DNA from: Candidatus Thorarchaeota archaeon SMTZ1-45
GTDB taxonomy: Archaea; Asgardarchaeota; Thorarchaeia; Thorarchaeales; Thorarchaeaceae
Direction: 5' to 3'
Assembly (NCBI GenBank): GCA_001563335.1
Contig: LRSL01000012.1
Location: forward strand, 1 to 15,070
Length of the DNA stretch: 15,070 nt
Part shown: in pieces, positions 109 to 14,721 of the stretch
How positions within the stretch are numbered: position 1 is the first letter of the stretch
Layout: each line of letters starts with the position of its first letter
Program-made: the position numbers and the translations under genes
The notes under the pieces: generated by a model
What the model was told of the DNA's origin: nothing
What the model saw: the letters and a program-made list of their open reading frames with translations, nothing else
The model's database searches: none

Positions 109-214
109 ACAGAGAGGAATATTCTCTCTCTGTAAATTCTGTTTAATACATATGTTTCTCTTGTCCGATTGGTAGATATTCATAGCCGAATATCCCCTGA
201 ATAATGATGATTTG
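109..214 (-). repeat. Cassette-boundary repeat copy 1 (gene-3'-end duplication + hairpin)
   Basis: Hairpin ACAGAGAG(109-116)/CTCTCTGT(126-133). Core 142-210 contains TGTTTCTCTTG at 153. Minus strand reads QIIIIQGIFGYEYLPIGQEKHMY*. About 22/69 mismatches to my hand consensus. Confidence 0.85.
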
Positions 215-376
215 TGGATCGACTCGATTCAGTCCTTCGTTCGGAAACTAGTTAAGGCATGACAGAAAATGTACTGGGAGTATTGCGAGGGAGAAAGAAG
301 ACATTAGCACGCGCCAGTTCTTGAGGTGCAAGAGGAAACCTCGATTACTGCCATCGCAACTGAGGAGAGAGTGTTA

Positions 377-2017
377 ATGCAAAGAAAGGATGGAGTATGT
401 TTCGTAGTCTTATCACTGATGTTCATCCTGGTCCTAGGGAGTGTGCTCACAGTCGCTGACCTTGAAGGTAGTGACTTACAACCAAGTGTGATGGTTTCAG
501 ATCCCGAGAAAGGACAGCTGCAGGTTGCTAACACACCGCACACTTCGATAGTCATCGATGGAGATGCAAATTTCTCGGCCACAGCTCTGCTAGAGGGATG
601 GCCTGGTGATGGCTCATTTGAGAATCCTTATGTCATCGATAAACTGGACATAGACCGCGGTGGTGGCACAGGTCACTGCATATACATCAGCAATACTCGG
701 GTCAACTTCACCATCAGCAACTGCATTCTCACAGGTGCTAATTTATCTACGAACGCTGGTATCTATCTTGAAAATGTCACCTATAGCAAACTGATTGGAA
801 ACATTCTCTACAACAATGCCTTCATCATCTACCTCAAAGACTCTCACTCTGTTTTGATAAAGAACAATACCTGTACAAGTAACAGCCTGAGCATCAAGCT
901 AGAAGCGTCCAATTCCAACACAGTAGTGAATAACAACTGTACTGGCAACAGCGATGGCATCTATCTCAATAATTCGAATTCCAGCACAGTGATGAACAAC
1001 ACCCTCAACAGCAACGACAACTATGGCATCTACCTCGAATATTCATATTCCAACACCGTAGTCAACAACACCTGCACCAGCAGTCCTCTCTATGGCATCG
1101 TCCTCATGGAGTCCAATTCCAACATACTGGCGAATAACACCTGCGCCAACAATGACTATGGTATCTATCTCTATTTTAGTGATCTCAATGTCATTCAGTG
1201 GAACGTCCTAGACCAGAATGGCGGTTCAGGCTGGTGTTCGGGGACTGGCAATGTCTTCGACTATAACTACTGGTCAGACTACTCAGGTACTGATGCAAAC
1301 GGAGATGGTTTTGGTGATGCTCCCCACACGTTCCCTGGTAACTCTGATCCGCATCCATTGATGTATCTTCCATACGCACCTGACTGGCTGCACCTCCCTG
1401 TGGACCAGGTCATTGAGTATGGTAATATATTCGAATATCGTCTCGAGTTCATAGCCACAGCACTGACCGCACCCTATGAGCTGTCTGTAGATGATCATGT
1501 GAACTTCGCGGTGGGCTATGATGACACAATCATAAGTAGAATTCCACTCCCCGTTGGAGTCTACCCACTATGGGTTGTAGCGACTAACATCTACGGATAC
1601 GCGACTGAGGGCACCTTCATGTTAACGGTTGAAGACACGACCCCACCTCTGATAACGAGTCCTGAAGACATCACTCACACACAAGGAGAGGGTTATTATG
1701 AGATAGCTTGGACAATGTCGGATCTAAGCACTATTAGTTTCAGAGTTCTCCTAGACGGAACAGAGCTAACTTCAGGCGGAGTGACTACGACCTCAGTTTA
1801 TTTCACGATGACTCTCGAGGATAAGGACCCTGGCGTCTACAACTATACTATGGTCGCGGAAGATATCTGGGGCAACATAGCTATCGACACGGTCATTGTC
1901 ATGGTACTACCGATTCCGTTCATTGAAGTAATGTTTCCATGGATGGTTGGAGGTGCAGTGATTGTAATATCGATTGTTGTAATAGTCTTCTTTTTAAAAA
2001 GGCGAAAATCCTCGTAA
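377..2017 (+). CDS. Cell-surface protein: NosD/CASH right-handed parallel beta-helix repeats, Ig-like domains, C-terminal TM anchor
   Basis: ORF track 326..2017. ATG 377 is preferred because GAGGAG lies upstream and a signal-like hydrophobic stretch follows. Repeated GIYL-x-x-S-x-x-N-x-x-x-NN motifs, NYWSDY..DANGDGFGD motif, C-terminal hydrophobic helix + KRRKSS. Confidence 0.88.
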   Translation: MQRKDGVCFVVLSLMFILVLGSVLTVADLEGSDLQPSVMVSDPEKGQLQVANTPHTSIVIDGDANFSATALLEGWPGDGSFENPYVIDKLDIDRGGGTGHCIYISNTRVNFTISNCILTGANLSTNAGIYLENVTYSKLIGNILYNNAFIIYLKDSHSVLIKNNTCTSNSLSIKLEASNSNTVVNNNCTGNSDGIYLNNSNSSTVMNNTLNSNDNYGIYLEYSYSNTVVNNTCTSSPLYGIVLMESNSNILANNTCANNDYGIYLYFSDLNVIQWNVLDQNGGSGWCSGTGNVFDYNYWSDYSGTDANGDGFGDAPHTFPGNSDPHPLMYLPYAPDWLHLPVDQVIEYGNIFEYRLEFIATALTAPYELSVDDHVNFAVGYDDTIISRIPLPVGVYPLWVVATNIYGYATEGTFMLTVEDTTPPLITSPEDITHTQGEGYYEIAWTMSDLSTISFRVLLDGTELTSGGVTTTSVYFTMTLEDKDPGVYNYTMVAEDIWGNIAIDTVIVMVLPIPFIEVMFPWMVGGAVIVISIVVIVFFLKRRKSS

Positions 2018-2038
2018 CTGAATCATTCCATAGTGTTT

Positions 2039-2127
2039 CTCTCGATAGAATATTGAATCTACCTCTGTGTGACTTATCTGTACGACTGGTAATCAGGTCT
2101 GAATGTTTCCTGTGCATTGACAAACTG
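2039..2127 (-). repeat. Cassette-boundary repeat copy 2 (decayed)
   Basis: Core 2055-2123 GAATCTACCTCTGTGTGACTTATCTGTACGACTGGTAATCAGGTCTGAATG... aligns without gaps (~22/69 mismatches). Minus strand FVNAQETFRPDYQSYR*VTQR* has an internal stop. Only the CTCTC arm of the hairpin remains. Confidence 0.75.
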
Positions 2128-2298
2128 GGTGGTTCCATCCATAAGAAATGATGAGAAGCAAATCCATCTGCCTATTTACTCATTTTGTGACAAGATTGAA
2201 GTAGAGGTTGAAGTATCTTCATTATGGGACCATAATTTCCATGATAGATGTTATTCCAAAGTATCTGAGATGAGAGTCCTAATAGGTGGTTGTAAATT

Positions 2299-3312
2299 AT
2301 GAAGATCGAAGAAATAAGGAGAACTCATGAGAAGCGTCTGCTGAGAATCGCTAATGTAGTAGGAGTGATGATCGGATACAAGGTAACAGCGGGTGAAAAG
2401 ACCGATAAATTAAGCATTATTTGTCTAGTAGAGAAGAAAGTCAAGGAAAAGGACTTGAAAAAGCAAGACATCATCCCCGCCGAAATAGACGAAGAACTCA
2501 TTGATGTGATTCAGGTAGGGAAATTGAGGGCTTTTCAAATAGATAAAAAGACTCGACACAGACCTTGCCCAATGGGTACATCAGGAGGTCACTATCTAAT
2601 AACTGCAGGCACGAATGGGGAGTTGCTCAGAGATAAGAGAACAGGCAAGACTTGCATAGGGACCAATAATCATGTTGGAGCAAACTCAAATAATGCTCAG
2701 ATTGGAGATCCCTATCTTCAGCCTGCAGCTTATGATGGCGGTACTGTTCAAAACGACACAATAGGACATCTCTTGAGATTCATCCCAATAAGCTTCGGTT
2801 TGGACCAGAGCGAATGTGCGGCAGCAAGGTTCTGGAGCGGGATTTATAATATTCCTGCAAGGGCATTTGGAAGGATGACAAGGCTGCAACCAGTGGTTGC
2901 GTACCCTGAGTATAATCTAGTTGACGCAGCCATGATTGAAGTAGCTGAGAGTGATGTTTCAAGTAATATCGTAGAACTTGGAGTCCCACGAGGCGTCAGA
3001 CAGCCTCAATTAGATATGCTTGTACAGAAGTCGGGAAGAACATCATGTCACACAATTGACGGAGTAATAACTGGTATAGATGCTACGCTAGGTCCTATCG
3101 ACTATGGAGGGAGATACGCGTATTTCAGAGATCAGATAGTCATAAGCAAGGAGGGTTTCAGTGCTGGGGGTGACTCAGGAAGCCTGATCCTAGACAACGA
3201 GGGATATGCTGTGGGCAAGCTCTTCGCAGGTAGTGAGGAGCAGAATATTACAATAGCAAACTCAGTGCAGACCTATCTGGACATGCTTGACGCAGAATTA
3301 ATCACTGAATGA
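2299..3312 (+). CDS. Trypsin-like (PA clan, Nal1-like) serine protease with N-terminal prodomain-like region
   Basis: Catalytic triad motifs TNNHV (His), VDAA (Asp), GGDSGS (Ser); KSGRTS motif typical of this group; GGTGG upstream of ATG. Confidence 0.85.
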   Translation: MKIEEIRRTHEKRLLRIANVVGVMIGYKVTAGEKTDKLSIICLVEKKVKEKDLKKQDIIPAEIDEELIDVIQVGKLRAFQIDKKTRHRPCPMGTSGGHYLITAGTNGELLRDKRTGKTCIGTNNHVGANSNNAQIGDPYLQPAAYDGGTVQNDTIGHLLRFIPISFGLDQSECAAARFWSGIYNIPARAFGRMTRLQPVVAYPEYNLVDAAMIEVAESDVSSNIVELGVPRGVRQPQLDMLVQKSGRTSCHTIDGVITGIDATLGPIDYGGRYAYFRDQIVISKEGFSAGGDSGSLILDNEGYAVGKLFAGSEEQNITIANSVQTYLDMLDAELITE

Positions 3313-3321
3313 GGTCGCTCA

Positions 3322-3573
3322 ATGGTCACGTTAGAACAAGTGAAACGGGTAAAGGCTGAATATGAAGAGGAACTCATGAAAAAGTCCGGAGTTGTAGGTG
3401 TAGCAATTGGTCACAAGCACATCAATGGTGGAAAGACCAAGCAGCTCTGCATAATCTGCTATGTTATAGAAAAGAAACGAATAGGAGAACTTGAAGAACA
3501 CGATATCATCCCGGAGGAGATTGAAGGAGTTCCAATAGACGTTGTTGAGTCAGGAACGATTCGAGCTTTGTGA
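3322..3573 (+). CDS. Small protein homologous to the N-terminal ~80 aa of the upstream protease
   Basis: VVGVAIGHK..GGKTKQLCIICYV.EKK...DIIPEEIEGVPIDVVESGTIRAL aligns with protease VVGVMIGYK..GEKTDKLSIICLVEKK...DIIPAEIDEELIDVIQVGKLRAF. 9-nt gap with GAGGT RBS. Confidence 0.85.
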   Translation: MVTLEQVKRVKAEYEEELMKKSGVVGVAIGHKHINGGKTKQLCIICYVIEKKRIGELEEHDIIPEEIEGVPIDVVESGTIRAL

Positions 3574-3623
3574 AAGGAGGGGGATAGGTCGTACAGTCCC
3601 TGATTTAGGGAAGGTACTGAGGA

Positions 3624-3720
3624 GAGAGGAAGATCCTCTCAATTGAACATTGAAACAACATCTGTTTCTCTTGCTTGTACGGCAGACAGTCAGAGATAAT
3701 GATCTCACGAGCCATGACTA
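3624..3720 (-). repeat. Cassette-boundary repeat copy 3
   Basis: Hairpin GAGAGGA-AGA-TCCTCTC (3624-3640). Core 3652-3720. Minus strand IVMAREIIISDCLPYKQEKQML (stop TAG mutated to TTG). ~12/69 mismatches. Confidence 0.92.
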
Positions 3721-4287
3721 TGAATGAATTGCATTCCACGCAATCTCACATGCCTTCTCAATATTATTCTCATCCATCTTGACTATCCCCGCATAATGGA
3801 AATTCAGAAGGGTGATGATGGGGAAATAGGCAAATGCAGTCAAGATTGGTGGAGGTAGAGCTTTGATTGTCATCTCATTGATGCCCCGCTTGAGTAGACG
3901 GTCGACTGTCTGGAAAAGCTCGAAGTCCTCTGCCCTGATGTTCCTCATCATTGTTGTCCGTTCAAACTGCTCTCGATAGGCGAGATACTCTGGATGCCTG
4001 AGGTTGTATGTGAAAGAGTGATGCCAGATGGACTTGAATGCCTCTTCTGTTGTCATTCCTTCCTCAAATCCCTCCAATGCACCCCGACTCATCTTTTCCC
4101 GAATATCGATATAGAGCTTGGTGAAGAGGTCCTCCTTATTGTCGAAATAAATGTAGATAGTTGCTGGTGAAACCTTCGCCTTCTTCGCAATCTTTGAGAT
4201 AGAGATTCCATCAAAGCCTAGATCATTAATCAGGTTGATAGAAGCATCAACAATCGAATCATATTTTGCTTGGTCGCGTGTTCTCAT
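3718..4287 (-). CDS. TetR/AcrR family transcriptional regulator
   Basis: N-terminal HTH GFDGISISKIAKKAKVSPATIYIYFDNKEDL; 189 aa; divergent from the MBL gene. Confidence 0.95.
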   Translation of the reverse strand: MRTRDQAKYDSIVDASINLINDLGFDGISISKIAKKAKVSPATIYIYFDNKEDLFTKLYIDIREKMSRGALEGFEEGMTTEEAFKSIWHHSFTYNLRHPEYLAYREQFERTTMMRNIRAEDFELFQTVDRLLKRGINEMTIKALPPPILTAFAYFPIITLLNFHYAGIVKMDENNIEKACEIAWNAIHS

Positions 4288-4319
4288 GGCGAGTTATTGC
4301 ATGGCACGAAAGATATATA

Positions 4320-4363
4320 AATGAATGGTCATTCACTTTATTATTAGTGAATGAACGTTCACT
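4320..4363. promoter_or_regulatory. Two palindromic TetR operator candidates in the divergent promoter
   Basis: AATGAATG-GT-CATTCACT (4320-4337) and AGTGAATG-AA-CGTTCACT (4346-4363), 26 bp apart, adjacent to TATA-like ATATATAA (4313-4320) and TTTATTAT (4337-4344). Confidence 0.75.
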
Positions 4364-4378
4364 TATGAGAGTGTAAAC

Positions 4379-5056
4379 ATGACCGACACTTACATCACCA
4401 GGATTGAGTCCGGTGGAGTCAATTGTTACCTGCTTAAGGTGAAAGACGGATTTGTTCTCATTGACACCGGTTATGCAAATTATCGCGATATCATTGATGC
4501 GGCTCTAGCTAAGGCTGGGTGTAATACCCTCAACCTCATAATACTCACACATGGTGACTTCGACCATGTGGGTAACTGCGTCTATCTAAGAAGGAAGTTC
4601 GGTTGCAAAGTGGGAATGCATGCTGATGATGTAGGTATGGTCGAGAAAGGGGATATGTTCTGGAATAGAGATATGGGTCGGGTAAAGCGAACCATTGGGA
4701 GACTTTTCACTCTCATCATGCGAATTAGGCTTGATGAGGTAGACATGTTCTCACCAGACATCTTGCTGAAGGATGGACAGAGTCTTACTGAGTTTGGATT
4801 CGATGCAACTGTACATCATCTCCCAGGGCATTCCAAGGGCTCCATTGGACTTCTGACTGCAGATGGTGACCTCTTCTGTGGTGATGTCTTCACCAATGTG
4901 TCAATGCCAAAGGGATCCGACTTACTTTCGAATCGCAATGAATACATCAAGAGTCTAGAGAGAATACAGAGGCTCGATATCCAGACTGTTTATCCTGGCC
5001 ATGGTCAACCTTTCTCCAGAAGCGCATTCTCAAATATCTTTCAGGAGGTTTTTTGA
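4379..5056 (+). CDS. MBL-fold metallo-hydrolase
   Basis: LIDTG, THGDFDHVG (HxHxDH variant), PGHSKGS, LFCGD, YPGHG motifs. Confidence 0.93.
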   Translation: MTDTYITRIESGGVNCYLLKVKDGFVLIDTGYANYRDIIDAALAKAGCNTLNLIILTHGDFDHVGNCVYLRRKFGCKVGMHADDVGMVEKGDMFWNRDMGRVKRTIGRLFTLIMRIRLDEVDMFSPDILLKDGQSLTEFGFDATVHHLPGHSKGSIGLLTADGDLFCGDVFTNVSMPKGSDLLSNRNEYIKSLERIQRLDIQTVYPGHGQPFSRSAFSNIFQEVF

Positions 5057-5059
5057 TAT

Positions 5060-5644
5060 TTGACAAATTCGAATAGCGAAACAAGGAAATCTGAACACAA
5101 TCAGAGAAACCAACAATTGCGTCGCATTGCACTTGCGAGTTTTATATTCTTGATATGCGCCGCGACGCTAGTAATCATCCTGTTGCAGATGTCAGGATAC
5201 GCTGGGACAATGGAGGACACTCAGCTTGGATTCAATGCTGAGGTCATCAGAAACTACTTCTCTCTCATGAGCCAAACAGATATGGGACTCTTCATTGCTG
5301 CAAATCTTGCAGACTATCTCTTCATGTTGTTCTACGGCATCTTCTTTTTCAGTGCCGCCAGACTCATTTCATGGAACTATAAGAGAGGTCTCCCAAAGAG
5401 GATTGGTCTATCGCTTGCATGGGTAGGTGTCATAGCTGCTTTTCTAGACGGGATTGAGAATGTGTTCCTGCTCTCGATGACTGCTGACCCAATTGGGTTC
5501 GCTGGATGGCTCGCGATTGCTCACTCAAGCTTTGCCCTTGCTAAGTTTCTCTTCATGTATGTGGCAATGGCTTGGACCATGGTGGGTTTTGTGATGAACA
5601 GGACCCCTCTATCTACACATCTGATGGCAAGTCAGCTTGTTTGA
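5060..5644 (+). CDS. Hypothetical membrane protein (~4 TM helices)
   Basis: Starts 3 nt after the MBL stop; four hydrophobic segments; DYLF..FY and AFLDGIEN motifs. Start codon (TTG) uncertain. Confidence 0.75.
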   Translation: MTNSNSETRKSEHNQRNQQLRRIALASFIFLICAATLVIILLQMSGYAGTMEDTQLGFNAEVIRNYFSLMSQTDMGLFIAANLADYLFMLFYGIFFFSAARLISWNYKRGLPKRIGLSLAWVGVIAAFLDGIENVFLLSMTADPIGFAGWLAIAHSSFALAKFLFMYVAMAWTMVGFVMNRTPLSTHLMASQLV

Positions 5645-5659
5645 GATGAAAAGAATATT

Positions 5660-5762
5660 GAGGGAGCTTGAAGCTCCCTCTGTGAATATAGACTCAGAAT
5701 TGTTTCTCTTGTCCGTATAGTATATAGTCAGATCCGAAAATCACCCGCGCCATGACAATCTG
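5660..5762 (-). repeat. Cassette-boundary repeat copy 4
   Basis: Perfect IR GAGGGAGCTT-G-AAGCTCCCTC (5660-5680). Core 5690-5758. Minus strand QIVMARVIFGSDYILYGQEKQF* with TGA at the position where other copies have TAG. Confidence 0.92.
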
Positions 5763-5853
5763 TGTCACTTATTTTAGGAATAATCAAAGAGGTATGACAA
5801 ACTCAAGAGTTGGATTAAGGACATCTTGAATTCCACAAGCACAAAAATACCAA

Positions 5854-6465
5854 TTATTTGCTCAAGAATGCCATCACCCTTTCAATCAGATAACATGGTG
5901 TCCTACTCAATGTCTTGCTAATATTTCCTTTTGATGTCTTCATTACTTTTGCAATCTCGGAAACACGCTTCTTTTCCCATATGTAATAATAACAGTGCTC
6001 ACGCTGAGTTGTGCTTAGACCAAGTAAAGTCGTGAAAAACAGAATGGAATTTATCACAGCATTGTTCTTGCTGTCTGAGGCATTCTCGTCTAGCTTAAAA
6101 CCAGCCGACCTCTTCATGTATTTCATATTCTTTATCTCATCTAAAGCCTCTCTTGCGTTCCAGAAGGCCGGTCCATCACACTCATCAGCCTTTTCTTTGT
6201 ATATCATAATCTCTCCTGTTCCAAGTCCCACACGAAACTCCAACTCCTCGATCAGAAGCTTGTGGAATAGGAACACAATTGGATGCCAACTATTCACCAA
6301 CAGCTCCATGCTGTCACCTTGGGTCAAGACTGGGATAGCCACACAGTGCTCTCTGTAACGATTGTGTGTCAGGTCTAGTAAACCTTGTAACTTTTCGTAC
6401 AAATTCCTCCGCTCACGAGTATCGACATCTCTCGACGCTACGATATCAACGATGACCGCAATCAT
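5854..6465 (-). CDS. SatD family protein with C-terminal HTH
   Basis: DIVASR, TQGDS, FRVGLGTG, DGPAFWNAREALD motifs of the SatD family; C-terminal VSEIAKVMKTSKGNISKTL HTH. ATG 6465 with GGTGAG RBS preferred over TTG 6480. Confidence 0.85.
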   Translation of the reverse strand: MIAVIVDIVASRDVDTRERRNLYEKLQGLLDLTHNRYREHCVAIPVLTQGDSMELLVNSWHPIVFLFHKLLIEELEFRVGLGTGEIMIYKEKADECDGPAFWNAREALDEIKNMKYMKRSAGFKLDENASDSKNNAVINSILFFTTLLGLSTTQREHCYYYIWEKKRVSEIAKVMKTSKGNISKTLSRTPCYLIERVMAFLSK

Positions 6466-6472
6466 CGCTTTC

Positions 6473-6939
6473 TCACCCAACCAACAGAAATCTGAAGATT
6501 CCCCACGCCAATGCCAAAGCCATAGTAATACTCATGAGTGTACCTAGAATATACCAATCTGCACATGCACGATTATTGGTTTCTTTGCTCGAGTACCGGA
6601 AAATGGCTTTGCCAGCAACAATGACTGACAGAAAACTGAGAATTGCTGTATATGACAAGGCAGTGTCAAAATAAGCTATTACAATTGCTAAATATATCAG
6701 ACTCCTCTCTGTATATCCTATTAACATTTTAAGGCAATGTCTTCTTCAAGCCCTCTTCCCAACCAACCAAAAACCAAGTCAATTATCAAACCAGGCATAA
6801 ACAGAGTCAATAGATAACTAAAAAGAATAGTGAAGAATTCTGTATCTACTACAAGCATTGGAAATGCAGCAATTAGATACAGCGCTATACTACTTATGAT
6901 TGATATTAGTAAACCAAGAATCCGTTGAACGATCTTCAT
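6473..6939 (-). pseudogene. Frameshifted membrane protein (DUF3307-like SatD partner), split into 6721..6939 and 6473..6727
   Basis: Two overlapping hydrophobic ORFs. The second carries IGYTERSLI ... KAIFRY ... WYILGTLMS, typical of the C-terminal half of SatD-associated membrane proteins. Frame break at ...GCCTTAAAATGTTAATAGGA (~6728). Confidence 0.65.
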
Positions 6940-6988
6940 ATGAGCACCACATAATCATGTTAAATCCATATTGCCTTGCTCTGTAATA

Positions 6989-7067
6989 AGTTTACCTTTT
7001 TTATTAACAATATATTATGTTAATCATATAAGGAAACATAAATTAATGTTAACCTATATAGTTACAA
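6989..7067. promoter_or_regulatory. Three tandem 29-bp-spaced imperfect palindromes TGTTAA-N9-TTAACA upstream of the SatD operon
   Basis: AGTTTA-CCTTTTTTA-TTAACA (6989), TGTTAA-TCATATAAG-GAAACA (7018), TGTTAA-CCTATATAG-TTACAA (7047). AT-rich background lowers certainty. Confidence 0.5.
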
Positions 7068-7104
7068 ATAGGACTGACTAATGATTCGCCTTATCCTGGT
7101 GTAA

Positions 7105-7207
7105 AAGGGGGAGGAAGACCCTCTCTTGAAGAATATTAGAAACTACATCTGTTTCTCTTGCCTGTATGGCAGAAAGTCGGGTCCGAAAATCTCGCTTGTC
7201 ATGTAAG
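7105..7207 (-). repeat. Cassette-boundary repeat copy 5
   Basis: Imperfect hairpin AAGGGGGAGG-AAGA-CCCTCTCTT (7105-7127). Core 7139-7207. Minus strand MTSEIFGPDFLPYRQEKQM* (TAG 7143-7145). Confidence 0.95.
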
Positions 7208-7345
7208 AATGATTAGTTGTTAGAAGGCTCTAATGTTTGTGTTGCGACACAAGTCTACCTCAAGTTCGATTAAAATATATATCATTAATACTCAAGTTGG
7301 GTCATACTGTCGAATGTCAAACAGTCAAAATGAGCTGAAAAAAGT

Positions 7346-8569
7346 ATGAATCAAAGTAGGAAGATCATTCTTGGAGTAATCTTGATCGGAATTGTTGCCT
7401 TTGCGAGCATTGGGATTGTGCTTTTCCTAGATCATCCAATTACGCTTGATTCCAAGATTCAGCAATTAATGGACGATGGTGATATCCCTTCTTTTGCAGC
7501 CGGTATTGTCATTAATGACACCTTAGTCTGGTCAAAAGGTTACGGTGATCAACCAAGCTTAGATACAGTCTATATGATTGGATCGGTAACTAAAATCTTT
7601 ACAGCAACCGCCATTATGCAACTCTATGATGATGGTACGCTTGACCTTGACGCAGATGTTAACGATTACATCCCTTTTAGCGTTCGGCATCCTATGTATC
7701 CAAGCACTCCAATAACACCCCGTTTGCTCTTGACCCATAAGTCAGGAATCGCAAGTGATGTTTCAAACCAGACCCTCTGGGACTTCGATACAGTCATGAT
7801 TACCTGGGCAAATGATAACTTAGGCGCTGGTCTTCCCTTATGGTCATCACGTCCTACACTAGCAGAATTCTTGAATGGCTCTCTAAACCCTGGTGGTCCT
7901 TATTATTCACCAGAAAATTGGGTTTCACAACCTGGGGGACCAATAAGGCACTACTCTAACACAGGATTTCTTCTACTTGCATATATCGTAGAACAACTCA
8001 CGAACACATCATATATGGAGTACCTGCAGGAGAATGTCTTGGAACCATTGGATATGACTAACACAGGGTTCAACTACACTGATTTTGTGGGTAGAAATGC
8101 CATCCCATACGCATTCAGAGATGGTCAAAACTCTGTGTATCCTCATTATAACCAGTATAACTATGGTGGCGGGGCTGTAAGAACTACAGTCCCAGACTTG
8201 GCTAATCTCCTAATTGCTCACATGAACCAAGGGCACTATGATGACTCACAGATTCTTTCACCTCAAACTATTGATCTGATGCAAACATCGCAATTCAGCA
8301 TGTCTGGTGTCGAGTTTGGCGGTTTTACATACGTTGGACAGGGTCTGGGATGGTTTCTCTTCACGAATAATACTATAGCACATGGTGGGGCAACACCCGG
8401 TTTTCTAGCACAAATCGCATTTAAAACAGTCAGCAACGGCAAATATGGAATTCTGTTCATGGTCAATAGGGGTGCTAGCTTGGTAGAAGACAATTATCTG
8501 GTAAACACCTTCTTCCCATCTATGATTAGCACACTCTTCGATGAAGCTGCTCGATTGTTCAATATGTAG
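7346..8569 (+). CDS. Serine hydrolase, beta-lactamase/PBP-like family, N-terminal membrane anchor or signal peptide
   Basis: SxxK (IGSVTK), LLLTHKSG, YSN, HGG motifs; hydrophobic N-terminus. Confidence 0.93.
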   Translation: MNQSRKIILGVILIGIVAFASIGIVLFLDHPITLDSKIQQLMDDGDIPSFAAGIVINDTLVWSKGYGDQPSLDTVYMIGSVTKIFTATAIMQLYDDGTLDLDADVNDYIPFSVRHPMYPSTPITPRLLLTHKSGIASDVSNQTLWDFDTVMITWANDNLGAGLPLWSSRPTLAEFLNGSLNPGGPYYSPENWVSQPGGPIRHYSNTGFLLLAYIVEQLTNTSYMEYLQENVLEPLDMTNTGFNYTDFVGRNAIPYAFRDGQNSVYPHYNQYNYGGGAVRTTVPDLANLLIAHMNQGHYDDSQILSPQTIDLMQTSQFSMSGVEFGGFTYVGQGLGWFLFTNNTIAHGGATPGFLAQIAFKTVSNGKYGILFMVNRGASLVEDNYLVNTFFPSMISTLFDEAARLFNM

Positions 8570-8633
8570 TGTGTGAAAATCCCCAAAGTGAAATGCAAAC
8601 TAGGATTGTACCTTGCGTGAGACAAAAAAGAAA

Positions 8634-8737
8634 GGGGAGAGGAGAACCCTCTCTCCATTTGAAACTTGAAACTACGATTGTTTCTCTTGACTTTGCAGCA
8701 GATAATCAGGTCCAAAGATCTTTTGTGATTCGACGAT
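8634..8737 (-). repeat. Cassette-boundary repeat copy 6
   Basis: Hairpin GGGGAGAGG-AGAAC-CCTCTCTCC (8634-8656) preceded by an A-run (U-tract on minus strand). Core 8668-8736. Minus strand IVESQKIFGPDYLLQSQEKQS*. Confidence 0.92.
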
Positions 8738-8789
8738 GCAAAGACTCATTTTCAACTCAAGAAATAAGTGAAGCTTGGAAAGAAAGTAC

Positions 8790-9920
8790 ATGAAAGTTGA
8801 ATTAAATGTCAGTGTTCAGAATGTGATAGATGGACTAGTTGCATCAGGTGAAGAAATAGGTTTACAGGTCGCAGTCTATGTTAATGGCGAACTTGTCGTC
8901 GATGCATGGACTGGGGTTGTGGATGAGGTCAATAGGAAACCAGTCAATGGTGATACACTCTTCACATCGTGGTCGACGACCAAAGGGTTTGTTTCAACGT
9001 GTATTCACATTCTTGCTGACCGTGGTCTTATAGACTACGACACTCCAGTGGATACTTACTGGCCTGAGTTTGCAGCACATGGCAAAGACAAGATCACGGT
9101 TCGTAATGTCCTCACTCATTCCTCCGGGATACCACAGATGCCTGAGGATGTAACTCCAGAGATGCTGACAGACTGGGATGCAATGTGCACGGCAATAGCT
9201 AACCTTAAGCCACTATGGACTCCAGGGACTAAATCTGTCTATCATTTTTGGACATTCGGGTGGATTATTGGTGAGGTCATCCGTCGAGTCGATGGTCGCC
9301 CCGTTTCACAGTTTGTACAGGAAGAACTCTGTCAACCTCTGGGTATCAATGACTTCTATCTGGGCATTCCTGATACTGTGGAGCATCGTGTCGCACCACT
9401 TAGAGAAGAATCAACTCCTGATGCTGTAGCATCTGAACTGGACGATTTGGTTTTCCGAGTGACACCACCACAGATTACATGCGCTGAAGCTCTCAATCGA
9501 CATGATGTCCGACGGGCTTGCATCCCTGCCTGTGGTGGAATCATGAATGCTCGTGCTATTGCTCGACACTACGCAATGCTTGCTGGCTTCGGAGAGTTAG
9601 ATGGAATCCGAATCTTGTCAAAAGAACGAGTCGAGCTGATTCGCACTCTTCAGAAAGTTGATCCGGACGAGGTCCACATAGGGCAGATTCCCAAAGGTCT
9701 TGGATATCTCCTTGGGGGAAATCCCTATCATGACTGGAGTATCGCAATGGGTGAGACTGGTGGAGAATTTGGCCATCCCGGTCATGGTGGTTCACTAGGG
9801 TTTGCTGACCCAAACCGAAACCTTGGCTTTGGTCTGACCAAGAATCTCATGAAAGAAGGGGATGAAACCGTACGCATGGTGGCTGAAACAATCAGAAATC
9901 ATCTCGATAATACTCTCTAA
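8790..9920 (+). CDS. Serine hydrolase, beta-lactamase-related esterase (EstA/family VIII-like), cytoplasmic
   Basis: SxxK (WSTTK), YWPEFAAHGKDKITVRNVLTHSSG, YH, FGHPGHGGS..FADP motifs. ATG 8790 preferred over TTG 8775. Confidence 0.93.
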   Translation: MKVELNVSVQNVIDGLVASGEEIGLQVAVYVNGELVVDAWTGVVDEVNRKPVNGDTLFTSWSTTKGFVSTCIHILADRGLIDYDTPVDTYWPEFAAHGKDKITVRNVLTHSSGIPQMPEDVTPEMLTDWDAMCTAIANLKPLWTPGTKSVYHFWTFGWIIGEVIRRVDGRPVSQFVQEELCQPLGINDFYLGIPDTVEHRVAPLREESTPDAVASELDDLVFRVTPPQITCAEALNRHDVRRACIPACGGIMNARAIARHYAMLAGFGELDGIRILSKERVELIRTLQKVDPDEVHIGQIPKGLGYLLGGNPYHDWSIAMGETGGEFGHPGHGGSLGFADPNRNLGFGLTKNLMKEGDETVRMVAETIRNHLDNTL

Positions 9921-9951
9921 TCGAATTTCTTTAATGGAGAAAAGAAGAAGA

Positions 9952-10054
9952 TGAAAGAGGTGATTTAAACCTCTTTCAGTGGGTGAAACTACATCTGCTT
10001 CTCTTGCCTGTATGGTAGATGGTCAGGTCCAAAGAACTCATGAGCTATGACGAT
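9952..10054 (-). repeat. Cassette-boundary repeat copy 7 (closest to consensus)
   Basis: Perfect 10-bp IR TGAAAGAGGT/ACCTCTTTCA (9952-9978). Core 9985-10053. Minus strand IVIAHEFFGPDHLPYRQEKQM*. ~8/69 mismatches. Confidence 0.95.
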
Positions 10055-10103: not shown

Positions 10104-10146
10104 TTTATATGGTTTCAATATCAATACCGATATCGCAAGCGATATC
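10104..10146 (+). promoter_or_regulatory. TATA box and palindromic PadR operator candidate
   Basis: TTTATAT (10104-10110) preceded by purine-rich AAAG; perfect IR GATATCGC-AA-GCGATATC (10129-10146) over the expected transcription start. Confidence 0.7.
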
Positions 10147-10195
10147 AATAGTGATAAAGTTGTTACAATACCTGAATGGAGGTGAAAGAAAAAAC

Positions 10196-10735
10196 ATGCG
10201 TAGATCACATATACACAGACACTGGGATAGACGAACCTCATCAGTCCCGAAGGGATACCTTCGAGGCAAAGTCCTACGACTACTCAATAAGAAACCTATG
10301 TCGGGTGCTGAGATTATGAGTGATATTGAGGAAAACACTGGTCACAGATGGAGACCAAGTCCTGGATCTGTCTATCCGCTACTCTCATGGCTCTTAGACT
10401 CGGGTTATACGAAGGAACTGGCTGACACCGAGGCAGGTGTCCGACGATACGAGTTGACCGAGGAAGGTAGGAAACTTCTGGAAGAGCATGAGGAACGAAG
10501 AGCACAAGATAAAGGCGCTAGATTCTTCGGACCCCAGTTCGATGAATGGGATGGTGCCTTACCTGAAGGGGTTAGAGAACTAGCTGAAAGCTGGCATAAG
10601 ATGCGGAGAGCCAGTTATGCCCTCCGGAGAAAGCTAATGAAGGAATACTCCGAAACACTAGTATTGGAGGCTAAGAAACTGGTGGATGAATTCACGGAGA
10701 AGATCTCCAGAATAGCTGAATTTGATAAGGCATAA
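10196..10735 (+). CDS. PadR family transcriptional regulator
   Basis: KPMSGAEIM..WRPSPGSVYPLL..RRYELTEEGRKLL winged-helix signature. ATG 10196 follows GGAGGTGA RBS; the ORF-track start 10109 overlaps the promoter. Confidence 0.93.
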   Translation: MRRSHIHRHWDRRTSSVPKGYLRGKVLRLLNKKPMSGAEIMSDIEENTGHRWRPSPGSVYPLLSWLLDSGYTKELADTEAGVRRYELTEEGRKLLEEHEERRAQDKGARFFGPQFDEWDGALPEGVRELAESWHKMRRASYALRRKLMKEYSETLVLEAKKLVDEFTEKISRIAEFDKA

Positions 10736-10746
10736 ACTGCATCTAC

Positions 10747-10785
10747 GATGGAGTGGATTCCTTCACTCCATCACACTCTTTTTTT
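10747..10785 (+). terminator. Hairpin + T-tract terminator after padR-like gene
   Basis: GATGGAGTG/CACTCCATC stem (10747-10772) followed by ACACTC and TTTTTTT. Confidence 0.7.
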
Positions 10786-10806
10786 CATACCATGTATTAA
10801 CTAGAA

Positions 10807-10860
10807 AGAGAGAGTGAGAGCGAAAGACCCCCTCTCTAATTAATTAATGAATCTACATCT
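10807..10860 (-). repeat. Cassette-boundary repeat copy 8 (truncated)
   Basis: AGAGAG...GAAAGACCCCCTCTCT hairpin-like segment, then GAATCTACATCT (10849-10860), matching the first 12 nt of the core at 11/12. Similarity stops abruptly at 10861. Confidence 0.7.
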
Positions 10861-10938
10861 AGAGTACCATCTAAGTTAAGTGATAAGATATACTATTGAA
10901 TTTCAATTCACGTTGTTGCGAAAGGAAAGGGAGATCGC

Positions 10939-13900
10939 ATGAAATGGTCGATTTTCGTATTTGTTCTTTCAATGATTTTAGTATTTACATGGACACCAAT
11001 AATCTCAGACCCTACTGGACCATTAGAACATAGGTCAATTTCGTTTAGGCATGGTTTTCAACAATCCTATGATGTTCATAGTCCAATTGTTATTGCTAAT
11101 AATACAGACTTCGAATATCAGGCACAGCTTGAAGGATGGGTTGGAAATGGTACTCAGTCTAATCCCTACATTATTGAGGGCCTTTTGATAGATAGAAGCG
11201 GCTTAGCAGGTTATTGTATCGACATCCGGTCCACCACTATATATTTTGAGATACGAAATTGCCATCTCACTGGAGCAACAGTGAATGGGTATGCAGCTAT
11301 ATACCTGGGTGCAGTATCAAATGGAAAACTAACAAACAACAACTGCTCGGTCAATTACTATGGAATTTATGCTAATGGTGGGGGATACAATACGCTATAC
11401 AACAACACTTGCAGGAATAACTACAATGGAATTTATGTTCGAGCTTCTGCCTCACCCACTGTATCAAACAACAATTGTAGTGACAACTCTCTTTATGGCA
11501 TTTACTTGTGGGGCTCTGCTACAACAAATGGTGTAATTCAGGATAATCTATGTTTAGATAATGGTGGAAACGGCATCGATTCATACTACACTCATGATAC
11601 AAGTTATATAAACAACACATGCGTAATAAACTCAGGTTCAGGTATTCATATCAATATCGGGAACAATCCTTTCTTATTGAATAATACATGTAATTGGAAT
11701 GGCGGGCATGGAATTCACCTGGATCAGGGAGGTTATACATATCACTACGTTAGAAACAATACCTGTAGCAATAATAGTGTTATAGGAATCTATGCTCAAG
11801 ATTGGACAGATGGTGAAATCATCAAGAATTTGTGTTGGGACAACTCCTATGGTATCAGACTCACTGCATCGGACTCAGTCATAATAAGGAACAACACGCT
11901 CAATGTACACAATATTGGCATCTCGATAGACGGGTCATCAGATGGAAACACGTTCAACTGGAACGCAGTCAGAGATTGTGTTACCAACTACGCCATAGAT
12001 GATGGTACTAGTAACAATTTCAACTACAACTTTTGGTCAAACTACACAGGAACTGACAGTGATATGGATGGTTATGGTGACACGCCTTATTCTATCGATG
12101 GAACCTCTATGACGCAGGATTCGTATCCTTTAATATTCCCTCCTGATTTACCACCAATCGCTTGGATTGAGACGCCAATCAATCAAGTAATTTCTGAATT
12201 CGATGTATTCTATTATGACCTGAATGCGACTTTACATGCATCTTTAGACACTTGGCATGTAAACGACACGAATCATTTCACTGTGGACTCACTGGGAGTT
12301 GTGAGAAACTCATCTATTCTTGACCCAGGCATGTATGGAATCCAGATTGTAGTTAATGACTCATATGGCAACTATCTCATCGGAACCTTCTCACTGCTAG
12401 TTCTTGATTTCACACAGCCCAGTTGGATTGAGGAACCAACTAATAGATACTTCAGAGCTACCGATGCAATAATAGTCGACTTGGATGCATTTGATATTTC
12501 AGGCATCGACACGTGGTGGATTAGTGATGAAACAAATTTCATTATAGATGAAAATGGTGTGATAACGAATGTCAAGTCCTTACCTGATGCGATTTACCCA
12601 ATCCAAGTCTGGGTCAATGACACATCAGGGAACACACTCTCCGCCCAATTCAACATCAGTGTGGACCATAGTGCACCATATAGGCATGCCGCAATCTATA
12701 TCAATGGTGATGCTGATTTCTTGGTTCAAAACTGGTCTGGTGCAGGCACCCTCGAAGACCCCTATATCATTGAGTATCTTGAGATAAGTCCTGATGGAGA
12801 TTTTGAGTTTTGTATAGAGATTCTAAATACGCAATCATACTTCATCATTCGAGATTGCTTGTTGATTCATGCATGCATTGGGATCCGTCTCTACAATGTA
12901 ACTAATGCACTGATTGAGAATAATCTACTTTTAAACAATGAAGCTGGGATTGAATTGTCCTATTCATCCAACAATGATTTCCTTGATAATCTCTTTGACA
13001 GCTCTGAATTTGGTCTCTACTTGTGGAATTCGAATGAAAACAGAATAGATGGCTGTTCATTTAGTGGTGGTCAAGCTGGAATGTATTTCTATGAATCTGA
13101 TTGGAACGAAGTGACTGCATGTATCTTCAATCAGAGCTACAATGGACTTTATTTCAACACTTCCTCTTCCAACACAATCCTCATGAACACATTTCTTGAC
13201 TTCTCAATGTATCAAATTGTATTCTGCTCGCCATCAAACACTAACAACATTACTTGGAACATTTTCAATAATACACTAGGCTTCTACTTTAGCGGATTTA
13301 TTGTTAACATCTATGACTACAACTTCTGGCTTGCATATGCTGGTGTGGATGATAATGCTGATGGATATGGTGACACTCCATATTATATTCCTGGGGGAAT
13401 TGGACATGAGGATTCACACCCTCTCATGTACAGACCTTATCATCCAAGCTTTACAGACTTCCCAGAAGACCAGATCATTGAGATAGGGACAGCGTTCCAA
13501 TTCGATTGTAATGTCTACTCTCAGGCACCTATTTGGAGATGGTGGATTGATGATGAACTGCATTTTAATATCGATACCGAAGGAATCTTGACAAATACAA
13601 CATTTCTGGAAGCAGGTGAATATGTTATTAGAATTGGTGTTGAAAACATCTACAAGTTTGGTATCTCATCCATTTTTGTTCTGACCATTCAGGATACTAC
13701 CTCACCAATATTCGTTCCCTCCCTGACTAATCAGATGGTTGAATTTGGAAGCGTCTTATATTACGATATCAATGCACACGATTGGGGAGGTATTGACCAA
13801 TGGTGGATCAATGACACCATCCATTTCTCAATAGATAGTAATGGACATGTTACATCCGTTGGACCCCTTCCTGTTGGCGTTTACGGTCTTCGTGTCTGGG

Positions 13901-14604: not shown

Positions 14605-14721
14605 TCCAGTCGGAATATCTCTCTTTACTTGAATTGGTAAATCAATAATCACTCAAATCTGCTAAATGAACACATTCTCTCCATTTTTAGATTTAAATAT
14701 CCGACATTCTGTAAATACGCT

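Follow-up and report, generated by a model that had tools for sequence, protein, structure and literature searches.

Homing endonuclease genes at the 3' ends of fungal mitochondrial genes, such as atp6 in Allomyces and rps3 in Ophiostoma, bring with them a duplicate C-terminus. In streptococci, ICESt1 and ICESt3 reside at fda, and CIMEs and ICEs accrete at the 3' end of this gene. The system with which we chiefly compare our locus is that of the WHO elements, found at the FBA1 aldolase gene of Torulaspora and Lachancea (Coughlan et al. 2020, PMC7282813; Osborne et al. 2026 preprint, 10.64898/2026.08.13.744650). WHO elements are described as replacing the 3' end of FBA1 at every homing event, and as forming clusters in which endonuclease genes stand alongside FBA1 3' fragments and the newest adjoins the gene (PMC7282813).

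Here, we show that the repeats of a contig from a Thorarchaeota-type MAG are displaced 3' ends (pseudo-ends) of a single acyl-CoA dehydrogenase (ACAD) gene, each comprising the final 21 codons of that gene, the stop codon and a terminator made of a hairpin and a T-tract. The window is the entire 15-kb contig (15,070 nt). This conclusion is based on an intact 414-aa gene in the same genome (G000:C113:8786-10030(+)), which has three Pfam ACAD domains (Acyl-CoA_dh_N, E 1e-29; _M, 8e-13; _1, 1e-29), ends in ...IQKIVMGREIFGPECLPYRQEKQM*, which is the repeat peptide, has the same layout of stop, hairpin and T-tract as the repeats, and has eight pseudo-ends directly on its 3' side. The first-pass annotation, made from the letters of the window, had read the repeat core as the serially displaced 3' end of a gene plus its terminator, and had assigned that gene to the ACAD family; both the reading and the assignment are supported, and the window copies translate, with decay, to the peptide that it predicted. 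It had also expected the intact gene to the right of the array or beside arrays in relatives, and the gene does head arrays on C113 and in relatives but is not in the window. Because its pseudo-ends are fairly decayed, the window is probably a stretch of array far from the ACAD gene. The ends of the window and of C113 do not overlap, and the DUF362 gene that the window truncates is not completed by the end of C113.

The 63-nt coding end with its stop is present in the window as seven gapless minus-strand copies (local alignment to a 66-nt consensus, within 142-10054; Table 1), as annotated, the single gap in the copy 5 alignment being confined to the first 5 nt. An 11-nt core occurs seven times with at most one mismatch, against a mean of 0.53 and a maximum of 3 in shuffles. 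Among the stops claimed as conserved, TAG in copies 2, 5, 6 and 7 and TGA in copy 4 stand; the eighth copy, with its stop, was not found within 142-10054, where it had been placed, and only a gapped vestige lies at 14566-14632, whose match to the motif is weak and could be due to chance. A hairpin (stem 7-10 bp, loop 3-7 nt) followed by a T-rich tract is predicted 10-17 nt 3' of the stop in six of the seven copies, much as annotated, copy 2 being the exception. Its z-score is clearly beyond shuffles in only two of these six, and a minus-strand terminator scan also detects four of the hairpins (copies 1, 4, 6 and 7). A contig of run X1 extends 1222 nt past position 15070 and meets a further copy there, a hairpin plus end, in 63 letters that resemble window 3620-3682.

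Table 1. Pseudo-ends, hairpins and cargo genes along the window.
Feature	Position	Strand	Evidence and remarks
Hairpin and T-rich tract 3' of copy 1	109-133	-	Terminator scan; z -2.3
Pseudo-end copy 1	143-211	-	46/65 identical over 147-211, gapless; decayed; one extra codon, then TAA
NosD/right-handed beta-helix protein, 563 aa	326-2017	+	Pfam scan of ORFs
Pseudo-end copy 2	2059-2123	-	47/65 identical; TAG stop and internal TAA; no predicted hairpin
337-aa protein (NAL1_N and weak trypsin-like match) and 83-aa NAL1_N protein	2299-3573	+	Pfam scan
Pseudo-end copy 3	3656-3721	-	53/66 identical; TTG instead of stop; hairpin ~3624-3640, z -1.8
TetR regulator	3718-4287	-	Pfam scan
Metallo-beta-lactamase-fold protein	4379-5056	+	Pfam scan
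194-aa protein	5060-5644	+	Same cassette (3718-5644) as the TetR and metallo-beta-lactamase-fold genes
Pseudo-end copy 4	5694-5759	-	49/64 identical over 5696-5759; TGA stop; hairpin 5660-5680, z -5.0
SatD-family protein	5854-6480	-	Pfam scan
Two small ORFs	6473-6727 and 6721-6939	-	Cassette 5854-6939
Pseudo-end copy 5	7143-7208	-	57 identical, nearest consensus of the copies; TAG; weak hairpin, z +0.5
Beta-lactamase-family (PF00144) serine hydrolase, 407 aa	7346-8569	+	E 1.6e-46
Pseudo-end copy 6	8672-8737	-	50/66 identical; TAG; hairpin 8637-8653, z -0.8
Second PF00144 hydrolase, 381 aa	8775-9920	+	Pfam scan
Pseudo-end copy 7	9989-10054	-	55/66 identical; TAG; hairpin 9952-9978, z -4.5
PadR regulator	10109-10735	+	Cassette 10109-14604
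Beta-helix/Ig-like surface protein, 1221 aa	10939-14604	+	Cassette 10109-14604
Possible vestigial eighth pseudo-end	14566-14632	-	Gaps needed to align; 11/19 motif residues
DUF362 gene, truncated by contig end	14722-15069	+	Cargo

Selection acted in the ACAD frame. Across the 26 copies of this genome, the consensus is mismatched 89 times at first, 56 times at second and 186 times at third codon positions, and pN/pS in this frame is 0.27 (0.28 for five window copies). Four other frames give 1.13-2.00, and the antisense frame with coinciding wobble positions gives 0.37. This agrees with the many synonymous differences annotated at first. In G042, the peptides of the intact end and two pseudo-ends are identical, with 11, 8 and 6 synonymous differences and no non-synonymous ones. 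The duplication has a sharp left edge at a fixed boundary: over 124 pseudo-ends, agreement with the intact-gene consensus is 0.16-0.51 at -12 to -7 nt and 0.62-0.91 from -6 nt on. The ACAD gene is saturated at third positions over its full length (0.36-0.66), and end identity correlates with body identity only at r 0.20 over 66 nt. In WHO elements, the signature is a hypervariable 3' end whose phylogeny is discordant.

This genome holds about 25 pseudo-ends in total, spread over five contigs, and many Thorarchaeota MAG loci hold such arrays (L103, for instance, has 8 copies, and L093 and L081 have 7 apiece). In L081 and L117 (the latter in G042), non-synonymous changes and stops are commoner in distal than in proximal ends. 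The cargo cassettes between the window copies span 1.3-2 kb. The NAL1_N pair also lies between pseudo-ends in L087 (89% and 83% amino acid identity), the one-gene PF00144 cassette (8775-9920) is flanked by two pseudo-ends in L095 (82%), the PadR gene has a counterpart between pseudo-ends in L110 (93%), and the DUF362 gene is found within the arrays of L087, L112 and L119. The TetR and 194-aa genes recur in L082 (82-84%), where the metallo-beta-lactamase-fold gene of their cassette has no match. Contigs of runs X2 and X3 have a 25-nt insertion at window position 6723.

Some cassettes keep the same relative order across genomes while others are inserted or missing, and the order of DUF362 and then NAL1 cassette is common to the window and L087. 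This would fit homology-driven shuffling by no dedicated enzyme, with the ends as portable homology blocks and the ACAD body as left anchor, where cassettes, after one or a few founding duplications, are gained, lost or exchanged between cells by homologous recombination or gene conversion. Gene conversion might also account for several synonymous sites being more uniform in pseudo-ends than in intact ends (major-allele frequency: CAA 0.95, GAG 0.89, TAT 0.82), but this uniformity may merely reflect the close relatives sampled. Pseudo-ends differ from one another by 10-25% over 66 nt, a poor substrate for homologous recombination, and shuffling leaves unexplained the founding duplications as well as the first-cassette position and locus-specific clade of the endonuclease gene described below; we consider it quite improbable.

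A one-directional array of short, mostly one-gene cassettes, with a hairpin-containing repeat between them, also recalls an archaeal integron-like array or CALIN, the repeats being its attC sites, and integrons and attC clusters are described as enriched in Asgard MAGs (PMC9668308). However, our repeat is conserved in sequence and coding frame and comes from an actual gene, whose end it forms, whereas attC is conserved in structure and not in sequence; the stem-loop of the repeat is not the bulged R''-L''/L'-R' structure. The 66-nt consensus and its flank, read on both strands, have no GTTRRRY/RYYYAAC pair, which we take to be the attC motif, at conserved positions, and neither IntI nor another tyrosine recombinase was found in G000. 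We give this explanation a very slim chance.

What, then, might drive the insertions? The first-pass annotation had likened them to those of tRNA-targeting elements, and the restoration of a new end with displacement of the old one downstream does hold, but the integrase that the comparison implies was not found; evidence from relatives suggests a LAGLIDADG homing endonuclease instead. In G042, G015 and L059, a homologous large protein gene lies convergent with, and directly 3' of, the intact ACAD gene, and C-terminal remnants (L048, L060, L075 and L078) or an N-terminal piece (L057) lie there in others. Apart from the end and the hairpin, the first unit of G042 (2104 bp) contains nothing but this gene and the region upstream of it. 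The protein is free-standing, with two LAGLIDADG motifs and helix-turn-helix repeats, and no intein splicing domain was seen in it. Its AlphaFold model (pLDDT 86) has a predicted endonuclease fold, and Foldseek ranks the intein endonucleases TliVMA and PI-SceI at the top, together with I-DmoI (TM 0.63 by target), I-SceI and I-AniI. The aspartates of both motifs (D352, D474 and D476) are invariant in 23 sequences. The gene favours the first cassette: it or a remnant adjoins 7 of 23 intact ends vs 2 of 148 pseudo-ends (Fisher p 1e-5, which overstates the evidence since the counted genomes are related), and one of these two, L078, is an intact gene truncated by the contig start. It is sporadic, being present in 11 of 26 genus genomes, and the four ACAD-adjacent genes form a clade (100/100 support) separate from nine at other loci, the pattern expected of target-specific homing enzymes.

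These observations bear on integrase-type accretion, whereby the 63-nt end and terminator would be an att site into which integrase-less, cis-mobilisable cassettes are serially inserted by a recombinase that a virus, a plasmid or an unassembled region supplies in trans, the LAGLIDADG gene being merely another selfish passenger at the same site. Such accretion would leave unexplained why the endonuclease gene is almost exclusively in the first cassette, always convergent and behind the terminator. Neither this genome nor any of the arrays examined yielded a tyrosine or serine recombinase: PF00589 and PF00239 have no match in G000 at E <= 0.01 (control genomes matched in 14/14 and 12/14 cases, respectively), PF00589 matches in only 8 of 26 genus genomes, with none of the listed matches on an ACAD-bearing contig, and Pfam scans of array ORFs (C12, C113, C116, C65, G015, G042 and G046) gave no recombinase or transposase. 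In addition, nearly all third codon positions of the 63 nt vary, so that conserved arm or core binding sites could hardly be accommodated, although the last 20 nt are rather conserved as DNA. On the other side stand the regenerated target and displaced fragments with one sharp edge (target regeneration with a displaced fragment being described as the defining trait of Islander-type islands; PMC4383910), the many 1.3-2 kb cassettes without any endonuclease trace, the identical cassettes flanked by ends in other genomes, and a genome completeness of only 87.7%, so that an integrase might have been missed. We regard integrase-type accretion as unlikely, though far from negligible.

By analogy with WHO, we lean, with modest confidence, towards homing in which every insertion supplies a replacement 3' end, because an endonuclease or its remnant is often beside the intact gene in relatives and because of the minimal 2.1-kb unit; the driver is most likely a homing endonuclease and not an integrase. 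New DNA would enter at a fixed point, 63 nt 5' of the stop, bringing its own functional gene end and terminator and shifting the former end and older cassettes downstream, and repetition would build an array of cargo cassettes divided by decaying pseudo-ends. The endonuclease gene sits convergent to ACAD, immediately behind the shared terminator. Following WHO, we infer that the endonuclease may cut ACAD ends that lack the element and that the break may be repaired from an element-bearing copy, with homology in the ACAD body on the left and in the pseudo-end on the right; the new end, the endonuclease gene and any intervening cargo would thereby be copied in, and decay or deletion of the endonuclease gene would later leave cargo-only cassettes.

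Several findings count against homing. The right-hand homology is only ~66 nt plus the terminator, much shorter than the WHO FBA1 fragments. The endonuclease is absent beside 16 of 23 intact ends and almost all cassettes contain cargo only, which calls for an extra assumption, either clean gene loss or co-conversion or mobilisation in trans. No ACAD-clade endonuclease or remnant was found in G000 at E < 0.01, its two endonuclease homologues sitting at other loci (C24 and C109); the complete chromosome G046 has five pseudo-ends and no orthologous ACAD gene (best match 33% identical); C113 and L047 have no age gradient along the array; and the Foldseek matches also include WhiA, a LAGLIDADG-plus-HTH regulator that is not a nuclease. 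Distance from the pseudo-end consensus is not significantly greater for endonuclease-linked ends than for the other intact ends (Mann-Whitney p 0.17).

As in the fungal mitochondrial cases, the proposed endonuclease insertion would come with a replacement 3' end and leave the resident end as a pseudo-fragment, but those are single organelle events without cargo-bearing arrays, and their endonuclease ORF often continues the host gene as an in-frame fusion. With chromosomal integrons and archaeal attC clusters as described (PMC9668308), our locus shares a long array of small, mostly one-gene cassettes with varied adaptive functions and one entry point; here, however, cassettes are separated by a gene end plus terminator in place of a structured attC site and enter at the end of a metabolic gene in place of an attI beside an integrase gene, and no IntI was found. 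Tandem genomic islands (Islander-type; PMC4383910) and integrase-less CIMEs, located at tRNA genes or the 3' ends of protein genes, likewise regenerate their target, have units bordered by displaced fragments, accrete serially at a single site and include units without their own integrase. They differ from our case in that no integrase was found near the arrays examined or in this genome, about 25 units, mostly of 1-2 kb, occur in one genome, and the repeat varies at nearly every synonymous site.

Like WHO, as far as the published accounts describe it, the locus has a free-standing LAGLIDADG endonuclease gene (here predicted) just 3' of a metabolic host gene, whose 3' end would be swapped at each insertion for an element-borne functional copy, while displaced ends decay downstream in a tandem cluster with the newest unit beside the full-length gene; in both, the endonuclease genes are sporadic and often remnants, and related endonucleases occur at further loci. 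Unlike WHO, the replaced part is 63 nt plus the terminator vs ~415 nt, the predicted enzyme contains helix-turn-helix repeats but lacks a zinc finger, its gene is convergent with the host gene, and the LAGLIDADG fold alone appears common to it and WHO/HO, with no sequence kinship as far as tested. Most units here carry cargo without an endonuclease (hydrolases, regulators, surface proteins and, in G015, a type I restriction system). Finally, the host is an archaeon, so that copying would need DNA transfer or several chromosome copies, as opposed to meiosis in a diploid yeast.

Here, we propose that the repeats of the window are displaced 3′ ends of an acyl-CoA dehydrogenase (ACAD) gene with their terminators, and that insertion took place at one fixed point in this gene, a conclusion that we hold with high confidence. 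The first-pass annotation had assigned the repeat to the end of such a gene, and its main prediction was an intact gene with the same C-terminus. A six-frame search of the genome with the peptide (at most 8 mismatches in 19) gave 26 matches, on contigs C113 (9), C116 (5), C12, the window itself (6), C61 (3) and C65 (3), and the match at C113:9971 has 396 open codons upstream. On the plus strand, C113:8786-10030 encodes a 414-aa protein with the N-terminal, middle and C-terminal domains of the family (PF02771, 1.3e-29; PF02770, 8.3e-13; PF00441, 1e-29), and its C-terminus reads IQKIVMGREIFGPECLPYRQEKQM up to the stop codon. Downstream of it come the spacer, hairpin and T-tract that also mark the repeats; the 11.8 kb beyond contain eight pseudo-ends (displaced copies of the last 21 codons, stop and hairpin/T-tract). 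With all three domains and the matching end in one gene of the same genome, the family assignment and the main prediction were correct, and the original observation and its reading stand.

The copies bear a clear coding signature. Over the 21 codons of the 26 copies, mismatches to the consensus at codon positions 1, 2 and 3 number 89, 56 and 186, and pN/pS in the ACAD frame is 0.27 (0.28 for five window copies; 0.20 once the six most decayed copies are dropped), against 1.13-2.00 in four other frames and 0.37 in the antisense frame, which shares wobble positions. The excess of synonymous changes that had been expected for this frame is thus borne out. In the relative G042, two pseudo-ends and the intact end all specify one peptide, with 11, 8 and 6 synonymous differences and 0 non-synonymous ones; each pseudo-end was therefore a functional 3′ end in the past, and in a different allele. 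At the left edge of the duplication, similarity to the intact genes sets in sharply 6 nt ahead of the MAREIF Met codon, with a match of 0.16-0.51 at -12 to -7 and 0.62-0.91 from -6 on (124 pseudo-ends, all loci), and this edge is identical everywhere. The duplicated unit therefore consists of 63 coding nt, the stop codon, a short spacer and the terminator.

The window spans contig C12 from end to end, in a 3.54-Mb, 119-contig MAG (completeness 87.7%, contamination 5.8%). The 11-nt repeat core occurs 7 times in it at no more than 1 mismatch, against 0.53 expected from shuffles. Aligned to a 66-nt consensus, the seven copies are identical to it at 46-57 positions and have no internal gaps, in agreement with the earlier description, whereas the eighth copy counted there was not found within the stated range. 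Their minus-strand translations are decayed forms of IVMAREIFGPDYLPYRQEKQM and its stop; the stops are as first described in copies 2, 4, 5, 6 and 7, the stop is missing in copy 3, and copy 1 has one additional codon. A hairpin and then a pyrimidine-rich tract are predicted 10-17 nt past the stop in six of the seven copies. The stem sequence varies from copy to copy, a terminator scan also picks up four of these hairpins, and only two clearly exceed the shuffles in stability (z -5.0 and -4.5). An Rfam search of the window gave zero matches at E <= 1. Successive copies enclose cassettes of 1.3-2 kb.

Displaced ACAD ends in the window and the cargo of its cassettes
Feature	Position	Strand	Basis
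Pseudo-end copy 1	147-211	minus	alignment to 66-nt consensus
Pseudo-end copy 2	2059-2123	minus	alignment to 66-nt consensus
Pseudo-end copy 3	3656-3721	minus	alignment to 66-nt consensus
Pseudo-end copy 4	5696-5759	minus	alignment to 66-nt consensus
Pseudo-end copy 5	7143-7208	minus	alignment to 66-nt consensus
Pseudo-end copy 6	8672-8737	minus	alignment to 66-nt consensus
Pseudo-end copy 7	9989-10054	minus	alignment to 66-nt consensus
Vestige of an end	14566-14632		gapped alignment to 66-nt consensus
Cassette cargo: NosD/beta-helix protein			
Cassette cargo: NAL1_N protein with weak trypsin-like match, and small paralogue			
Cassette cargo: TetR, metallo-beta-lactamase-fold protein and unknown protein			
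Cassette cargo: SatD and two small ORFs			
Cassette cargo: two PF00144 hydrolases, each in its own cassette			
Right of copy 7: PadR, 1221-aa surface protein, DUF362			

Other repeats lie within the cargo itself. The 1221-aa surface protein (Ig-like/PKD-type domains) has repeats of 261-nt period at 12480-14336, and internal repeats of 66-69 nt mark the NosD/beta-helix surface proteins (750-1151 and 11335-11908), which are recurrent cargo of many cassettes. The ends of C113, C116 and C65 fall inside NosD/beta-helix genes, so these paralogues, like the gene-end repeats, break assembly. Contigs of two public runs (X2 and X3) have 25 nt inserted at 6723, where the small ORFs 6473-6727 and 6721-6939 meet. 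The two ORFs may thus be parts of a single gene that is interrupted in this assembly or strain.

The window could not be joined to C113, as the two share no suffix/prefix overlap, and the open ORF at the end of C113 does not supply the absent part of the window's DUF362 gene. Four runs have public contigs covering the window, with word shares of 0.95, 0.66, 0.51 and 0.51, and break at or near repeats. One of them, covering 10608-15070, extends 1222 nt further and includes 63 letters like those at 3620-3682, indicating a further hairpin and end to the right of the window, the side on which the ACAD gene should be. Loose contig ends at 9989, 3647, 7190 and 8655 may be other repeat copies and not alternative neighbours, and the joints 6217>12132 (side 21) and 10006>3702 (28 letters between) resemble hits to further copies of the repeat. 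Given its contamination of 5.8%, the MAG may be a mixture of strains.

ACAD orthologues are widespread among the genus genomes (82-91% identity), and the span is 81-91% once Thorarchaeota records are included. Pseudo-end arrays follow them in six genomes (G001, G006, G011, G013, G015 and G016), and arrays are found in many other Thorarchaeota records, with up to 8 copies in 7 kb (locus L103) and 7 each in L093 and L081. All four copies of G042 lie at one locus of a 669-kb contig, and the complete chromosome of G046 has five pseudo-ends at one locus (L119, G046:C1:3060143-3065170), along with the C-terminal remnant of an endonuclease. This chromosome lacks an orthologous ACAD gene (best match, 33% identity), so the gene is dispensable and the array able to outlive it. 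An age gradient along the array is present in L081 and G042 and was not seen in the C113 or L047 arrays.

Cassettes recur between genomes with 82-93% protein identity, flanked by ends there as well and with partly different neighbours, as for the second hydrolase (L095), the NAL1 pair (L087) and PadR (L110). In L082, the TetR gene and a 194-aa gene recur, but nothing matches the metallo-beta-lactamase-fold gene (4379-5056 in the window), which is unmatched in the otherwise similar cassette at L082:10475-11710 and suggests gene gain or loss inside a cassette. In G015, the locus L020:2014-15361 (on contig C49) is a single first cassette of 13.6 kb with an endonuclease, a HerA-like ATPase, a complete type I restriction-modification system (HsdR, HsdM and HsdS) and a DprA-like and phosphoribosyltransferase pair. 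The ACAD-end site thus accepts defence islands too.

What might have inserted these cassettes? G042 and G015 each have, as the first gene beyond the intact ACAD gene and in the opposite orientation, one for a large protein that matches LAGLIDADG_3; the two proteins share 35% identity over 519 residues. The G042 gene (L117:2352-4172, minus strand) codes for 606 aa. With a profile of this protein, complete or remnant genes were recovered at this position in L059, L048, L049, L060, L075 and L078, together with a fragment in L057 and a single remnant behind a G046 pseudo-end; the genes beside ACAD are full in G042, G015 and L059. Among ends with 300 nt or more of sequence behind them, a convergent LAGLIDADG gene or its remnant lay within 500 nt at 7 of 23 intact ends and at 2 of 148 pseudo-ends (Fisher p 1e-5, which overstates the evidence since the genomes counted are related). 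One of the two latter cases is an intact gene truncated by the contig start. No such gene or remnant was found in the five array contigs of our genome. In G042, the first unit (2104 bp) holds only the gene end, the hairpin, the LAGLIDADG gene and 118 nt upstream of that gene.

The AlphaFold model of this protein is confident (pLDDT 86), and its best fold matches are LAGLIDADG enzymes, namely the TliVMA and PI-SceI intein endonucleases, I-DmoI, I-SceI and I-AniI (probability 1.00 for the last three and for PI-SceI), with WhiA, a regulator that is not a nuclease, also among the matches. As modelled, it has the LAGLIDADG homing endonuclease fold, with two LAGLIDADG helices, conserved acidic residues and an alpha-beta-beta-alpha-beta-beta-alpha core. 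Across 23 sequences, G347, D352, G471, D474, G475, D476 and G477 are invariant, including both motif aspartates. The family is small: only 23 relatives are detectable at E <= 1e-5, the two members with a source name are Thorarchaeota hypothetical proteins, and 11 of the 26 genus genomes have it. In the tree, the four ACAD-adjacent genes form one clade (support 100/100) apart from nine at other loci, five of which, in two groups, sit at the same place upstream of rpl44e-eIF2alpha. No endonuclease of the ACAD clade was found in our genome, whose two homologues lie on C24 and C109.

L123 (G000:C24:371-2122, in our genome) and L128-L131 are LAGLIDADG-HTH genes for proteins of 559 to 1106 aa that share one position, upstream of rpl44e, eIF2alpha and STT3, in five genus genomes; they may represent another homing site or a domesticated copy. 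L124 (G000:C109:45216-48911) encodes a 1231-aa LAGLIDADG-like protein directly upstream of a urocanase gene split by a frameshift. A second case of end duplication was sought there and not found; the urocanase is only frameshifted, with no repeat longer than 14 nt.

A tyrosine integrase supplied in trans would also leave a regenerated target with a displaced fragment bounding each unit, and this is the arrangement found. The tyrosine (or serine) recombinase of such an island was found neither in the genome nor in the scanned arrays: PF00589 and PF00239 gave no match in our genome (87.7% complete) with a search that returned matches in control genomes, and Pfam scans of the array ORFs of C12, C113, C116, C65, G015, G042 and G046 revealed no recombinase or transposase. 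PF00589 was matched in 8 of 26 genus genomes, none of the matches listed being on an ACAD-bearing contig. In our genome and 18 of the 26, all from incomplete assemblies, it went undetected, and so likewise did a XerA-like gene, whose absence is, to our knowledge, unusual for archaea. We consider an integrase acting in trans unlikely and still a serious rival.

In integrons, attC sites have an R''/L''-L'/R' structure with a GTTRRRY core. No conserved GTTRRRY/RYYYAAC pair could be read by eye on either strand of the consensus, and the genome has no PF00589 match for an integron integrase. A survey of archaeal 'integrons' reports 539 attC sites against only six IntI genes, with enrichment in Asgard MAGs (PMC9668308). 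An integron is a very improbable reading here. Tn7-like and casposon-like readings were dropped, as the array Pfam scans contained no transposase, TnsABC or Cas1. Target duplication by such elements comprises a few bases only.

We therefore lean, by a modest degree, towards insertion of the cassettes by an endonuclease mechanism with putative cleavage at the gene end. It would account for why the enzyme gene favours the first cassette, why a minimal unit exists, why the clade is specific to this locus and why no integrase was found. For most cassettes one more step has to be assumed, in which the enzyme gene was lost or several cassettes were co-converted from a donor array. Recombination between ends without any enzyme seems improbable. 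The arrays probably reflect a WHO-like, end-replacing homing system in Asgard archaea, which would have built up their cargo-rich series of cassettes.

Going further, we tentatively suggest that Thorarchaeota, and perhaps other Asgard archaea, could possess a gene-capture platform driven by a homing endonuclease, one doing an integron's work by the cassette switching of WHO and HO. The LAGLIDADG enzyme would cleave the end of a dispensable metabolic gene, repair of the break would bring in a recoded gene end with any cargo up to an older pseudo-end, and dozens of defence, surface and hydrolase cassettes would in this way be gathered and exchanged at one locus. If true, the platform would be the first of the third homing-element class outside budding yeasts, the same logic in Asgard archaea would show an independent prokaryotic origin of this mobility route, and part of the reported integrase-less attC clusters in Asgard MAGs could be such arrays. 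A WHO-like system would also explain large variable regions without integrases in Thorarchaeota genomes, and assembly breaks at such loci. As the putative endonuclease would have a defined natural target of ~20-60 bp, the idea is directly testable at the bench. Should the integrase rival be right, the locus would still be an unusually long accretion array, with ~25 units at the end of an archaeal protein gene.

How close, then, is the likeness to WHO elements, the yeast LAGLIDADG homing elements at FBA1? End-replacing elements of this type have so far been described in two yeast genera only. A 2026 preprint treats them as a third category of homing elements, engaged in an arms race at a 28-bp target (10.64898/2026.08.13.744650), and archaea are not mentioned in the text available from either WHO source (PMC7282813; 10.64898/2026.08.13.744650). 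Literature searches on Asgard LAGLIDADG proteins, free-standing archaeal LAGLIDADG proteins and acyl-CoA dehydrogenase integration sites turned up no description of the ACAD-end locus. As in WHO clusters, tandem 3′-end fragments lie downstream of a full-length host gene. A LAGLIDADG gene or remnant in the first position, beside the host gene, is seen in relatives at 7 of 23 intact ends, and none was found in the array contigs of our genome. Two WHO-type predictions, 3′-end diversity or discordance and divergence of endonuclease-linked ends, found no confirmation. Third-position diversity is 0.36-0.66 along the whole ACAD gene (25 full-length genes) with no 3′ excess, since the synonymous sites have reached saturation over its full length; the pairwise identity of gene body and end is uninformative, the available genomes being too diverged; and endonuclease-linked ends are not significantly more divergent than other intact ends (p 0.17). 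The hallmarks of the WHO/HO sequence family (an intein-derived endonuclease with a zinc finger, related to HO and VDE) were not found in the LAGLIDADG protein, for which Pfam gives LAGLIDADG_3 and weak HTH matches only. The model places helical HTH-like repeats both before and after the nuclease core, and the PI-SceI and TliVMA fold matches are restricted to the endonuclease part (TM 0.21-0.24 by query). The protein thus appears to be WHO-like in its working and not a member of the WHO/HO family.

In anatomy, the Thorarchaeota arrays match the WHO elements of Torulaspora and Lachancea. They differ in that the replaced segment is very short, the enzyme has HTH repeats but neither a zinc finger nor a recognisable intein splicing domain, its gene is convergent with the host gene and the host is prokaryotic; the chief difference is their many cargo-only cassettes. 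Tandem island accretion at tRNA genes and gene ends also resembles the ACAD arrays, as integrons do in function, but the enzyme that defines each of these two systems is missing here.
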